Numbered from the stretch's first letter, positions 635 through 3,700 are shown. The stretch: DNA of 64,000 bases from an uncultured delta proteobacterium (GCA_963782055.1 CAWAIF010000003.1:2208001-2272000); one strand, 5' to 3'. Numbers and translations are program-made. Notes: a model not told the origin generated them from the letters alone.

Positions 635-766
635 CCCGGCGACTGCGTACTTGCGCGTGGGTGCGCACATCCGCGCTGAAGCTCCCACGAGTTTGCTCCG
701 CCTGGGTCGAATAGTCAGGCGCACGACCCGCGCCGCGCGTAGCCTCAGCTCAGCGAGGAGGGTGGC

Positions 767-3700
767 ATGAAGATCGCGCAGGCAGGCAGGCAGGCAGGCA
801 GGCAGGCAGGCAGGGGTAGGAGCACATGGTTGGCAGTAGCGGGAACGCTCCCCTTCGTGGGCTACGCGGCCATCGGTTGCGGGAGCCATTCCGAGGCCCT
901 CGGCTCACAGCGCAGCGCCATAGGGCTCGGCGCGCAGCCAGACACGAGTGACCCCTTCAACGCCAACATCGTGGTCCAGTTGTTCACGAACGCCGTCGGA
1001 TGCACCGGGACGCTGATCACGCCAACCGCCGTGCTGACAGCCCGCCACTGCCTGGACGGTGGCGAGGGCATGCCCGTGGGGATGGGCGACACTCCCACCG
1101 TGGGCTTCGGGCCGCACGGCTCGGACCTGACCTTGATGGGCACCGATGGCCATCCGGCGCGTCACGGGGGCCCCGGGCCGGTGACGCAGGCGGCTGGCGA
1201 CCTCGCCGTGGTGGTTCTGGATCGCATTTACCTGAACCACTGGAGCGCAGTCGCACCGACCCTCGCAGAGGCGCCCTGGACCAAGGTGCTCGAGGTCAAC
1301 TGGCACCGGCCCCTGACGCAGGAGGACTCGACCGGCTACTACGCGGCAGGTTGGGGCGGGCCCGGGAAACTATCCACGGACCGGCAGGTGGCGCCGGTAC
1401 CTTCCATCGGCGTCGATGCGGACATTCTCGACTACTTCTACACGAACGGTGACGACGCGGTGGTTCAACATGGGGACTCCGGCGGCCCCCTCTTCGGTCT
1501 CGATGCACAGGGGAAGCGGGTCCAGCTCGGCGTCGCGTCGATGTCTGGCGGCGCAGGTCATGACTTCCACGACATCTGGGTGAACCTCCGCGACAACGGC
1601 TTCCACAACCTGAACTGGCTGGCCGGAGTGATGGTGGATCACCGTCACGACGCCCAGCCGAACTGGCTCAAGCAACACCCGTGGCCCGCGACCACCGCGG
1701 AGCCCTCGCGGTGGATCGGTGAGGCAGACTACGCCGGCCCGTGCGATCAGGCGCACGACGCCGACTGCGATCACTGGTACGAGGACGATCCGACGACCCA
1801 CCAGGACCACGACAACTGCCCCGGGGTCTTCAACCCGGACCAGTGGGACGAGGACGACAATGGTGTCGGCGACGCGTGCGAGGCCGGCGCGTGCGCGTGC
1901 GATCCGCTGGGCCACGACGCCGACGGCGATCGGGTGTGCGAGGTCTACTGCCCCGGCGCGACCAAGGGCCCGATCGACAACTGCCCGACCGTCAAGAACG
2001 CCGACCAGGCGAACTGCAACGCCGCCTTCGAGCACGCGAACCTCCCCACCAAGCCGCCGCTGGGCGACGCGTGCGATCCCATCCCGTGCCCGATGCCGGC
2101 CACGGTGCACTCGCTCACCGCCGATCCGAGCGCACCAGGCTGCGCCGGCTACGGGAAGAACGGCTGCAAGCCCAACGCACCCCCGTACGAGAACACCATG
2201 CAGTGCTGCGGGGCGTCGACGAACGACCGCGTGCACACGGTCACGATCGGCGCCCACCGGATCAACGCGCCGGAGAAGCTGCCGCTGCCGTCGGTCACGC
2301 CGTTCGAGGTGAACGTCGGCGTGGCCAACACGGTGATGCGGTTCTGTCAGAGCGACATCTCGCAGAACATCCGATGTGATGCGAACAACGTGTTGAACGA
2401 CAGCGAGCTGTCGTTCGACGTCCCGTCCACATCCTCGCACCCGTGGCATCGGATCACCTCCCGGCGCATCGCAGGGAACCTCCCCACCCTGCCGGCCTAC
2501 GATCTGGACCTCCAGGGCCTGCAGTACGGGGCGTCCGTCTTCGACGTCCGCTGGCTCTACGCCGACGATCTGGGCACGTGGCTCGCCAACCCCAACGATC
2601 CGGTGATCCCGGGCTGTACCACGGCGACCGACCCCGCGTGCCTGGACGGCACCTTCTGGGTCAACGGGGATACCCTCGTCGGGAAGTCCCCGAACGATAC
2701 CGTCAACGGCCAGGTGGTGGGGTTGCACATCGACGCATTCACTGCGGCCAACCTCACCGGGAGCCTCGCCGACGGCCTCACGCCCATCCATCCTCAGGCC
2801 ACGCTGCTCTGGTGCCCGATCCCTTCTCTCGTGCCGCCGCTGGCGGACACCGGCGGGCCGCTCGGCCACCACGCCGGGCTGATGATCTGGCCTCCCCACG
2901 GCCTGAGCTCCTCCACGCTCGACCAGGGGATCGCCGGCGCCTCTCGCGTCCTCCTCGCGGAGGCCAGCTCCGGCGTCATGGCCGCGCTCCAGGGCGACGG
3001 GACGGCCATCCTCGCCCAGGATCTGACGACGGACACCGGCACCGTGGACTGCGGCGGCGATCAGGTGATGGGCACGGTGCGCCAGATCTCCTTCTCCGGG
3101 GAATCCACCTGGCTGAGCGCGGTGGAGCCGGCGGCGGCCATCCCCGGGCTCACCGCCGACGCGGTCGCCCTCTCCCTCGACGGCACCACGCTTGCGGCGC
3201 TGGCGCAGACCGACGCGGTCACCGGTCAGCTCGGCGCGAGGCCGATCGGGCCGACGGCGGGAGGGGCAGCCGACGCCCAGGGTCCAGTCCCCCGCACGGG
3301 CTACCTGGCGGCGTACTCGCGGAGCGCAGGCGGAGTCTTCGTCGCCGGCGGCACGGCGGCGGCCGACGAAGCCTCGCTGCACGACGTCTGGTTCCGCGCG
3401 CCGGGCGGCGCCTGGACCGACGTGACCCCGCGCGCGACGGGCGGCGGCAACTGCCTGCTCTGCCTGCAGACGCTCGGCCTCGGCGATCTCCGGGCGATCA
3501 CCTACTCCTACGACGACCGGAAGATGTGGATGGTCGACCAGGTGAAGGCGGGCAAGCTGCGCTGGGTGCGGCTGCTGCGCGCCAGCCCCGGCGGGCTGCT
3601 CGAGATGGTGGCGGCCTGGCCGCGCCTCGGCCTGGCGGAGAGCTACTTCCTCTCCGTCGACCACGACGGCTCGGTGCTGCTGTCCCTCGCGCGCGCGAAG

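Follow-up and report, generated by a model that had tools for sequence, protein, structure and literature searches.

The window analysed here is a 64-kb stretch of genome G000 (7.58 Mb in 3 contigs, ~72% GC), whose host is a myxobacterium (19 MYXO-CTERM matches). Two protease genes in this window, one of the trypsin family and one of the S8 (subtilisin) family, carry the same short leader, which runs from the ribosome-binding site (RBS) through the ATG and the codons for MKI into a GCAG tract (Table 1). The leader of the trypsin gene is referred to as copy A, that of the S8 protease gene as copy B, and a third genomic copy as C; the gene behind each leader is termed its cargo. Lipoprotein-type signal peptides, in cargo A, cargo B and at the other loci, were judged by eye.

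Table 1. Features of the window at loci A and B and in their neighbourhood.
Feature	Position	Strand	Remarks
Fpg/Nei-type glycosylase gene, 3' part	2..634	+	Pfam H2TH, zf-FPG; upstream neighbour of copy A
Conserved upstream block A with ACATCCGCGC (667-676), ~100 nt before ATG	653..680	+	Aligns with B and C
TCAGGCGC word A, probably a chance match to 60450-60457	715..722	+	Background frequency; absent from C
Core leader A: RBS, spacer, ATG (767), MKI codons	757..777	+	Core search
(GCAG)9 tract A	778..813	+	In frame at n=9; stop after 14-26 aa at n=7, 8, 10, 11
Cargo A: 1050-aa trypsin-family protein, ON as assembled	767..3919	+	Pfam Trypsin; His/Asp/Ser motifs present
Second lipoprotein-like gene of A operon	3937..5271	+	No Pfam family
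Duplicate of 3462-3722 (cargo A 3' part), 93% identical	5373..5633	+	Relic of local duplication
Leader ATG-(TCGCC)7, second family in window, out of frame	57823..57860	-	Heads 1138-aa sedolisin-like lipoprotein ORF (54404-57822)
IS91-family (Y2) transposase element, 3' remnant and end, upstream of copy B	59800..60296	+	Homologous remnant before C, not A
Conserved upstream block B with ACATCCGCGC (60406-60415)	60399..60420	+	Aligns with the other copies
Core leader B: RBS, spacer, ATG (60519), MKI codons	60509..60529	+	Core search
(GCAG)5 tract B, out of frame: 12-aa peptide ending at 60557	60530..60549	+	In frame at n=4 or 7
Cargo B: S8 protease with prodomain, 837-codon open frame, OFF as assembled	60550..63063	+	Pfam Peptidase_S8; Asp/His/Asn/Ser motifs; lipoprotein-type signal peptide
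Second lipoprotein-like gene of B operon	63108..63683	+	No Pfam family

Rich in IS elements, the window forms an island of lipoprotein genes. It holds two IS copies that are 99.7% identical (23168-25457 and 48955-51244), an ISL3 transposase (19469-20725) and an IS21-like pair (40452-42715), together with two 95% copies (51199-52808 and 58651-60219) of a unit comprising a uvrA-like 5' fragment, a DUF559 gene and the 3' remnant of an IS91-family element; the uvrA-like gene itself is intact elsewhere in the window, beginning at 16553(-). A further trypsin/TSP3 lipoprotein gene at 16819-19314 shows no tract at its start. For cargo A we found 36 homologs, and for cargo B the proteins P0038-P0041. 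A full-length, tract-free paralog of cargo A (32%) lies at C3:6354428(-) of G000 with an apparent frameshift between the signal peptide and the mature part. Four of five sequencing runs were compared with window 1-5500, all as contigs with coverage outside the tract region (770-822); assembled contigs of RNA-library runs included segments matching cargo A at 97-99% (one of them, 836-1215, shows 7 differences), a likeness that is not evidence of transcription.

Alignment of the two leaders confirmed the original prediction that one leader stands before a trypsin and a subtilisin gene 60 kb apart: the core GGAGGGTGGCATGAAGATCG(C/T)(GCAG)n begins at 757 in A and at 60509 in B and is 97.6% identical across 41 aligned nt. 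A search of the whole 7.58-Mb genome for the core with ≤4 substitutions returned exactly three sites, the third being copy C at C3:4430990(-). The existence of copy C removes the case, named in advance as telling against the prediction, in which no further copies exist. The copies are dispersed, with spacings of 60 kb and 2.2 Mb, and each cargo has its own leader. Their tracts, (GCAG)9, (GCAG)5 and (GCAG)6, each begin 11 nt after the A of the ATG; as assembled, A (n=9) is in frame, while B (n=5) and C (n=6) are out of frame.

The cargo genes are unrelated, as had been claimed. The best BLASTP hit between cargo A and cargo B had E=1.5, and the two belong to different Pfam families (Trypsin and Peptidase_S8); pairwise comparison of all three cargos gave no score better than E ~2.7. 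Cargo C, a 600-aa protein, had no sequence match in Pfam, Atlas or PDB. Likeness between the copies ends at the GCAG tract, since the 80 nt 3' of it showed no relation in any of the three pairs (p=0.19-0.72).

Such a likeness could in principle be convergent, each gene having grown its own GCAG tract, with a strong RBS and a Met-Lys start mimicking shared flanks. Independent origin of tracts is documented for the mod genes, for which at least 25 independent tract gains are reported (PMC5909438), so tracts alone are no proof of copying; the same cargo families also occur with different tract types in different lineages, and two unrelated metagenomic DNA methyltransferase genes match a relaxed form of the leader. 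Against this stands the core itself: its first 20 nt are identical at 20/20 positions among A, B and C and occur 3 times in the genome where an order-5 Markov model expects 8.8e-5, every time with a tract. Moreover, only 9 of 12,867 RBS-bearing ATG sites match the 14 bases upstream in copy A at ≥12 positions, and A, B and C are among these nine. With the homology of A and C reaching 100 nt upstream (see below), convergence appears largely refuted for the MKI trio, where we regard it as highly improbable; it may still hold between different leader families.

To describe the region before the core, we compared the 125 nt upstream of the RBS in the three copies. Two short words had been predicted to occur in the same order upstream of A and B. 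Both are present where claimed and in that order: ACATCCGCGC at 667 and 60406 (100 and 113 nt from the ATG) and TCAGGCGC at 715 and 60450 (52 and 69 nt). Their spacing differs, however, and both words occur in the genome at background frequency (77 seen vs 71 expected for ACATCCGCGC, 431 vs 467 for TCAGGCGC). Copy C carries ACACCCGCGC at copy A's distance from the ATG and lacks TCAGGCGC, whose match is probably due to chance and not part of the leader. A block around ACA(T/C)CCGCGC is present in all of A, B and C.

Against 500 dinucleotide shuffles, the A-B alignment was only marginal (p=0.03-0.05), as was B-C (p=0.03-0.05), whereas A-C was clear (p=0.002-0.016). Compared with 626 real upstream regions, the A-C score was equalled by none in global and by 2-6 in local alignment; 13-40 of these regions equalled the A-B score and 8-21 the B-C score. 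The leader thus extends ~100 nt upstream in diverged but homologous form, with secure support from A-C and weak support for B. The ACA(T/C)CCGCGC block is a candidate promoter or operator element. The promoter that the original prediction had included in the leader did not emerge: promoter and terminator scans gave 0 sites at either window copy, and no sigma-70-like promoter was found there. Folding of the leader RNA revealed no stable structure (z-scores 1.19, -0.31 and 1.64), and Rfam gave 0 matches in the 64-kb window; the leader therefore shows neither the conserved fold nor the Rfam match by which a structured cis-regulatory RNA would be recognized.

The near-identical core combined with the near-background upstream sequence of B also fits a later homogenization of the core alone. 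According to this main rival, short-patch conversion seeded in GCAG tracts moves or homogenizes only the 20-40-nt core of RBS, ATG and tract, and the likeness further upstream is a shared regulator site or an older relic. Consistent with it, the core is identical in all three copies where the upstream sequence is far more diverged, and no core within 3 mismatches was found in any of 316 other family genomes (≥85% complete). The leaders of two other loci, H and I, are in addition 77% alike upstream yet differ inside the RBS spacer. On the other hand, the A-C alignment spanning all 125 nt outscores every one of the 626 real regions, and few positions of the core are free to vary, given the constraint on the RBS, the ATG and the preferred codons AAG and ATC. 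Conversion alone also leaves the origin of a gene's first tract unexplained. We consider this explanation unlikely, though worth keeping in view.

Changing the number of repeat units in silico disclosed what one unit does to each gene. The frame of copy A yields 1050 aa at n=9 and 14-26 aa otherwise; that of B yields 846 aa at n=4 and 12 aa at n=5; and that of C yields 609 aa at n=4 and 38 aa at n=6, being in frame at n=4 or 7. In all three, the tract is followed by a hydrophobic stretch ending in Cys, i.e., a lipoprotein-type signal. The arrangement recurs throughout the genome. Tracts with 4-5-nt units in ≥4 copies lie within 16 nt behind an ATG in 17 of 18 cases, against 0.22 at random positions (p=8e-11). 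When units of 4-7 nt are included, 13 tracts head long ORFs with lipoprotein-type signal peptides, with tract copy numbers of 4 to 17 and open frames of 297-1261 uninterrupted codons behind them; three homopolymer loci have the same layout. These loci thus display the sequence hallmarks of simple-sequence-repeat (SSR) contingency loci, namely a tract in the 5' coding region, toggling by one unit and non-random placement at surface genes.

The anatomy strongly supports the predicted switch, at A and B and genome-wide; the tracts very probably are slipped-strand phase-variation switches. An opposing explanation holds that the tracts do not vary, or arose in assembly, and that the genes out of frame are decaying pseudogenes. 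Only 1 of the 13 signal-peptide loci is in frame, so that the 12 out-of-frame loci exceed the expectation under random phases (p=0.039), and the assembly holds other frameshifted lipoprotein genes without tracts. Decay is hard to reconcile, however, with the long uninterrupted frames, the intact catalytic motifs of A and B, the highly non-random position of the tracts and the presence of the same layout in relatives, some of them in frame, and we give this explanation very little credence. MutS and MutL motifs are present in the host genome.

Several further loci of G000 were observed alongside this set. The palindrome TAC(A/T)CCC-NN-GGG(A/T)GTA has 15 mismatch-free occurrences and, with 0-2 mismatches, lies ~95-150 nt upstream of five SSR leaders and also of other lipoprotein genes (C3:1548175, 4910024, 6009944, 3023231, 2523116 and 2275235; window 33063, i.e. 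C3:2241063). It is likely a repressor site. The palindrome is absent at A, B and C, where the ACA(T/C)CC block might be a decayed half of it. Two copies of a gene for a 2261-aa Rhs/teneurin-like lipoprotein (window 26113-33123(-) and C3:6337946) both have the palindrome and an 11-12-nt C tract shortly before the predicted start. At C2:528948 and C3:6009810, tracts lie in short upstream ORFs before genes with their own start; at C2:528948 the stop of the short ORF overlaps the next ATG in one phase, which suggests control by translational coupling. Locus K (GCAC x8) precedes a response regulator.

Comparison of leaders and cargos within G000 showed that the MKI leader is not the only one found on unrelated genes, which bears out the prediction of one leader on different cargo. 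Besides the MKI leader on its three cargos, an ATG-AGCA leader heads a sedolisin-like gene and an unrelated gene (loci H and I), and a TCGCC leader heads two cargo types (loci O/P and Q). Conversely, the trypsin family stands under GCAG at A and under a GCAGG tract at its homolog N; four tract types occur in cargo family C/I/R/S and two in family H/O/P. Grouping the signal peptides by leader made them no more similar than grouping by cargo or by chance (mean scores of 18.0, 16.3 and 16.4, respectively), a result that gives no position for the junctions of A, B and C; the signal peptides of cargo C and its homolog in G006 resembled each other within background.

Relatives show the same mixing. 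In G006, the homolog of cargo C (41% over 636 aa) has a TCGCC leader, in frame at n=8, and the sequence closest to the MKI leader, which differs from it at 4 of 29 nt and has n=11, heads a homolog of cargo L (45% over 1018 aa); in G000, cargo L carries a GCAGG tract. In G004, a TCGCC leader heads a homolog (41%) of a tract-free G000 gene. Among the cargo B homologs, known here as protein sequences only, P0039 (56% over the first 320 aa) starts with MRVRLASPRLA, the TCGCC-tract peptide of loci O and P, while P0038 (65%) has no tract peptide. None of the 12 cargo A homologs read (of 36) had a tract peptide at the start, although an out-of-frame tract may have escaped notice in several that lack a signal peptide. 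Behind fpg, all five genus relatives examined carry another lipoprotein gene, one without a tract. By these comparisons, leader families and cargo families are mixed both ways, in G000 and across relatives.

The absence of the core, within 3 mismatches, from the 316 other family genomes searched marks the exact leader as lineage-specific. A relaxed leader pattern gave 1 match in the genome collection and 6 in metagenomes; four of the latter, with n=3, look like chance. Viral contigs gave 0 matches for two leader patterns and 0 for cargo B. No homolog of cargo B was found in 382 family and 400 order genomes at the thresholds used, in a search whose single-protein query can miss relatives. The simpler pattern ATG-(GCAG)4 is present in 10 of the 383 genomes of the family, G000 among them; it heads secreted-type ORFs in G006, G139 and G179, and response regulators or a remnant of one in G071 and G193. 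Sites in G081, G158, G340 and G367 and a second site in G193 were set aside as unclear or chance; TCGCC matches in G115 and G116, which have neither RBS nor cargo, were also set aside. These leader counts are best taken as lower bounds, since fragmented assemblies may break at variable tracts.

Two kinds of cargo outside the lipoproteins were seen in this survey. In metagenome contigs L015:1-345 (n=4) and L016:2464-2781 (n=7), a GCAG tract lies just behind the ATG of a methyltransferase gene, of the N6_N4_Mtase and D12 class, respectively; both are out of frame as assembled, the L016 neighbourhood looks phage-like by eye, and both genes are candidate phase-variable DNA methyltransferases. At L093, L094, L092 (G071) and L095 (G193), GCAG tracts with n=7-15 precede response-regulator genes with their own start, and at the two intact G071 loci the off-frame stop overlaps the RBS of the regulator.

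How the leaders came to stand on different genes can be approached through relics of rearrangement. Locus D is a paralog of operon E, with a leader 73-76% and downstream genes 83-92% alike; in D the tract abuts the final 31 codons of the gene that comes first in E, with ~0.8 kb missing. At locus G, the tail of a lost gene, known from a paralogous operon, starts within 20-35 nt of the tract, and at n=10 the frame continues without interruption through to the lipoprotein gene that follows. One end of duplicate J (483 bp, 92.5% to I) falls within its tract. A 135-bp stretch duplicated from the region upstream of C breaks off ahead of the RBS, which indicates that breakpoints are not confined to tracts. 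The suggestion that recombination takes place in the tract itself is therefore backed by relics at three other loci; at A and B no such event could be placed, and the 135-bp duplication, which concerns an MKI leader, ends upstream of the RBS instead. Separately, a HipA-Xre-like pair (by eye) at L042:15497-17228 lies between 483-bp direct repeats ending in an AGCA tract.

If the predicted portable cassette were a true mobile unit, a recombinase or an IS91-like element would insert leader and tract together in front of genes, the tract serving for attachment. Copies B and C each follow the end of an IS91-family remnant, likeness stops sharply at the tract, and the genome has 20 Y2-transposase matches. 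Copy A, however, has no such remnant, so that two of the three copies have one, and among 13 IS-end-like matches just 2 lie within 400 nt of a tract; we accordingly rejected IS91 as the main carrier of the leader. The leader also lies beyond the 3' end of the transposase, and in IS91 biology this side is not carried along. A common 5' boundary, a target duplication and high identity between copies are all missing, and the leader is absent from the viral contigs searched. The defined ends and high identity over a unit expected of a mobile element are lacking; identity is limited to 20-41 nt. The idea of a mobile element thus fails on the strongly diverged upstream sequence, the missing ends and recombinase and the confinement of the core to one of the family genomes searched, and we judge a true portable cassette very unlikely.

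No recombinase or invertase was found among the neighbours of A and B (25 proteins, Pfam) or, by eye, at the other loci, where only IS transposases were seen. Nor were there repeated sites flanking silent cassettes beside one expression site, as in a shufflon; self-comparison showed irregular duplications. In Mycoplasma, vlp genes share a promoter and signal peptide, and vsa/vsp are shufflons. The loci described here resemble these systems in joining a conserved 5' module to differing lipoprotein bodies, and differ in having no common signal peptide and in the scattered location of their copies; neither a recombinase nor inverted sites nor a single expression site was found.

The account that we favour, with moderate confidence, is that an MKI module was duplicated and stayed in place while the cargo was replaced at the tract, slippage making each junction readable. 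The three MKI copies would descend from one 5' module comprising ~110 nt of upstream DNA, the RBS, MKI and the tract. To judge from the anatomy, slipped-strand mispairing would add or remove 4-nt units just behind the start codon, so that, of the three tract phases, one would allow full translation of each lipoprotein gene and two would cut it short. After duplication the module would be kept, and cargo would be swapped by deletions, duplications or insertions with a breakpoint at the tract or shortly after it. The graft junction would need no frame match, as slippage can bring any of the three frames into register; any downstream lipoprotein gene that keeps its hydrophobic signal region would become a working switchable gene, and no dedicated enzyme would be required. 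A bolder version, which we put forward tentatively and hold to be rather doubtful, makes the tract both the switch and a preferred, frame-independent joint, the lineage keeping a leader kit (MKI-GCAG, MIF-GCAG, MAL-GCAG/GCAGG, M-AGCA, M-TCGCC) and grafting surface lipoproteins, many of them proteases, at the tract.

The proposed switch leaders have parallels in known systems. In Neisseria opa genes, a CTCTT tract lies in the signal-peptide region. Poly-G phase variation in this region is described for Neisseria pilC (PMC13190605), and Haemophilus lav has a GCAA(n) tract (PMC9022572). The likeness lies in a non-triplet unit just behind the start codon of a surface-protein gene, in most phases running into a nearby stop, and in many loci per genome. 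The differences are that the host here is a free-living 7.6-Mb myxobacterium with MutS and MutL motifs, and that RBS, spacer, first codons and ~100 nt of upstream sequence are common to non-homologous genes. The recurrence of one tract type at the same position in distinct genes is also seen in the Type III mod genes with GCACA(n), which are homologous methyltransferases, unlike the non-homologous cargo with a common flanking leader found here (PMC5909438).

At the level of the repertoire, the loci resemble the phasomes of Haemophilus, Neisseria, Campylobacter and Helicobacter, which have at least 10 SSR loci per genome, are enriched in surface proteins and vary between relatives (PMC11868660). 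The accessible part of that 2025 review mentions site-specific lipoprotein shuffling in mycoplasmas and describes no reshuffling of leader families among unrelated genes of the kind seen here; the repertoires that it describes belong to host-restricted species, and it identifies a gap for soil bacteria (PMC11868660). Phase variation, predicted here, is known in a myxobacterium from the yellow/tan switch of Myxococcus xanthus, which is tied to iron and regulators in a paper where the words 'repeat' and 'slip' occur 0 times (PMC3986340). Our literature search, in which few subscription papers were covered, found nothing on SSR switching in myxobacteria and no single SSR leader common to non-homologous genes.

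In our view, this family of candidate phase-variation leaders, reused ahead of unrelated genes for surface proteins, is a real and non-trivial feature. In the usual picture a tract expands inside each gene; here a ready-made switch leader appears to be reused on unrelated genes. With ~20 candidate SSR loci in a large-genome soil myxobacterium, the finding falls in a setting that the 2025 review names as a gap (PMC11868660). Gene callers will miss or shorten such tract-headed genes. Most loci are in the OFF state, and their products are surface proteases or orphan lipoproteins, which suggests a reserve for encounters with prey, competitors or phage. If the tract indeed serves as a joint, new or acquired genes would gain stochastic control in one step, without growth of a tract inside the gene.
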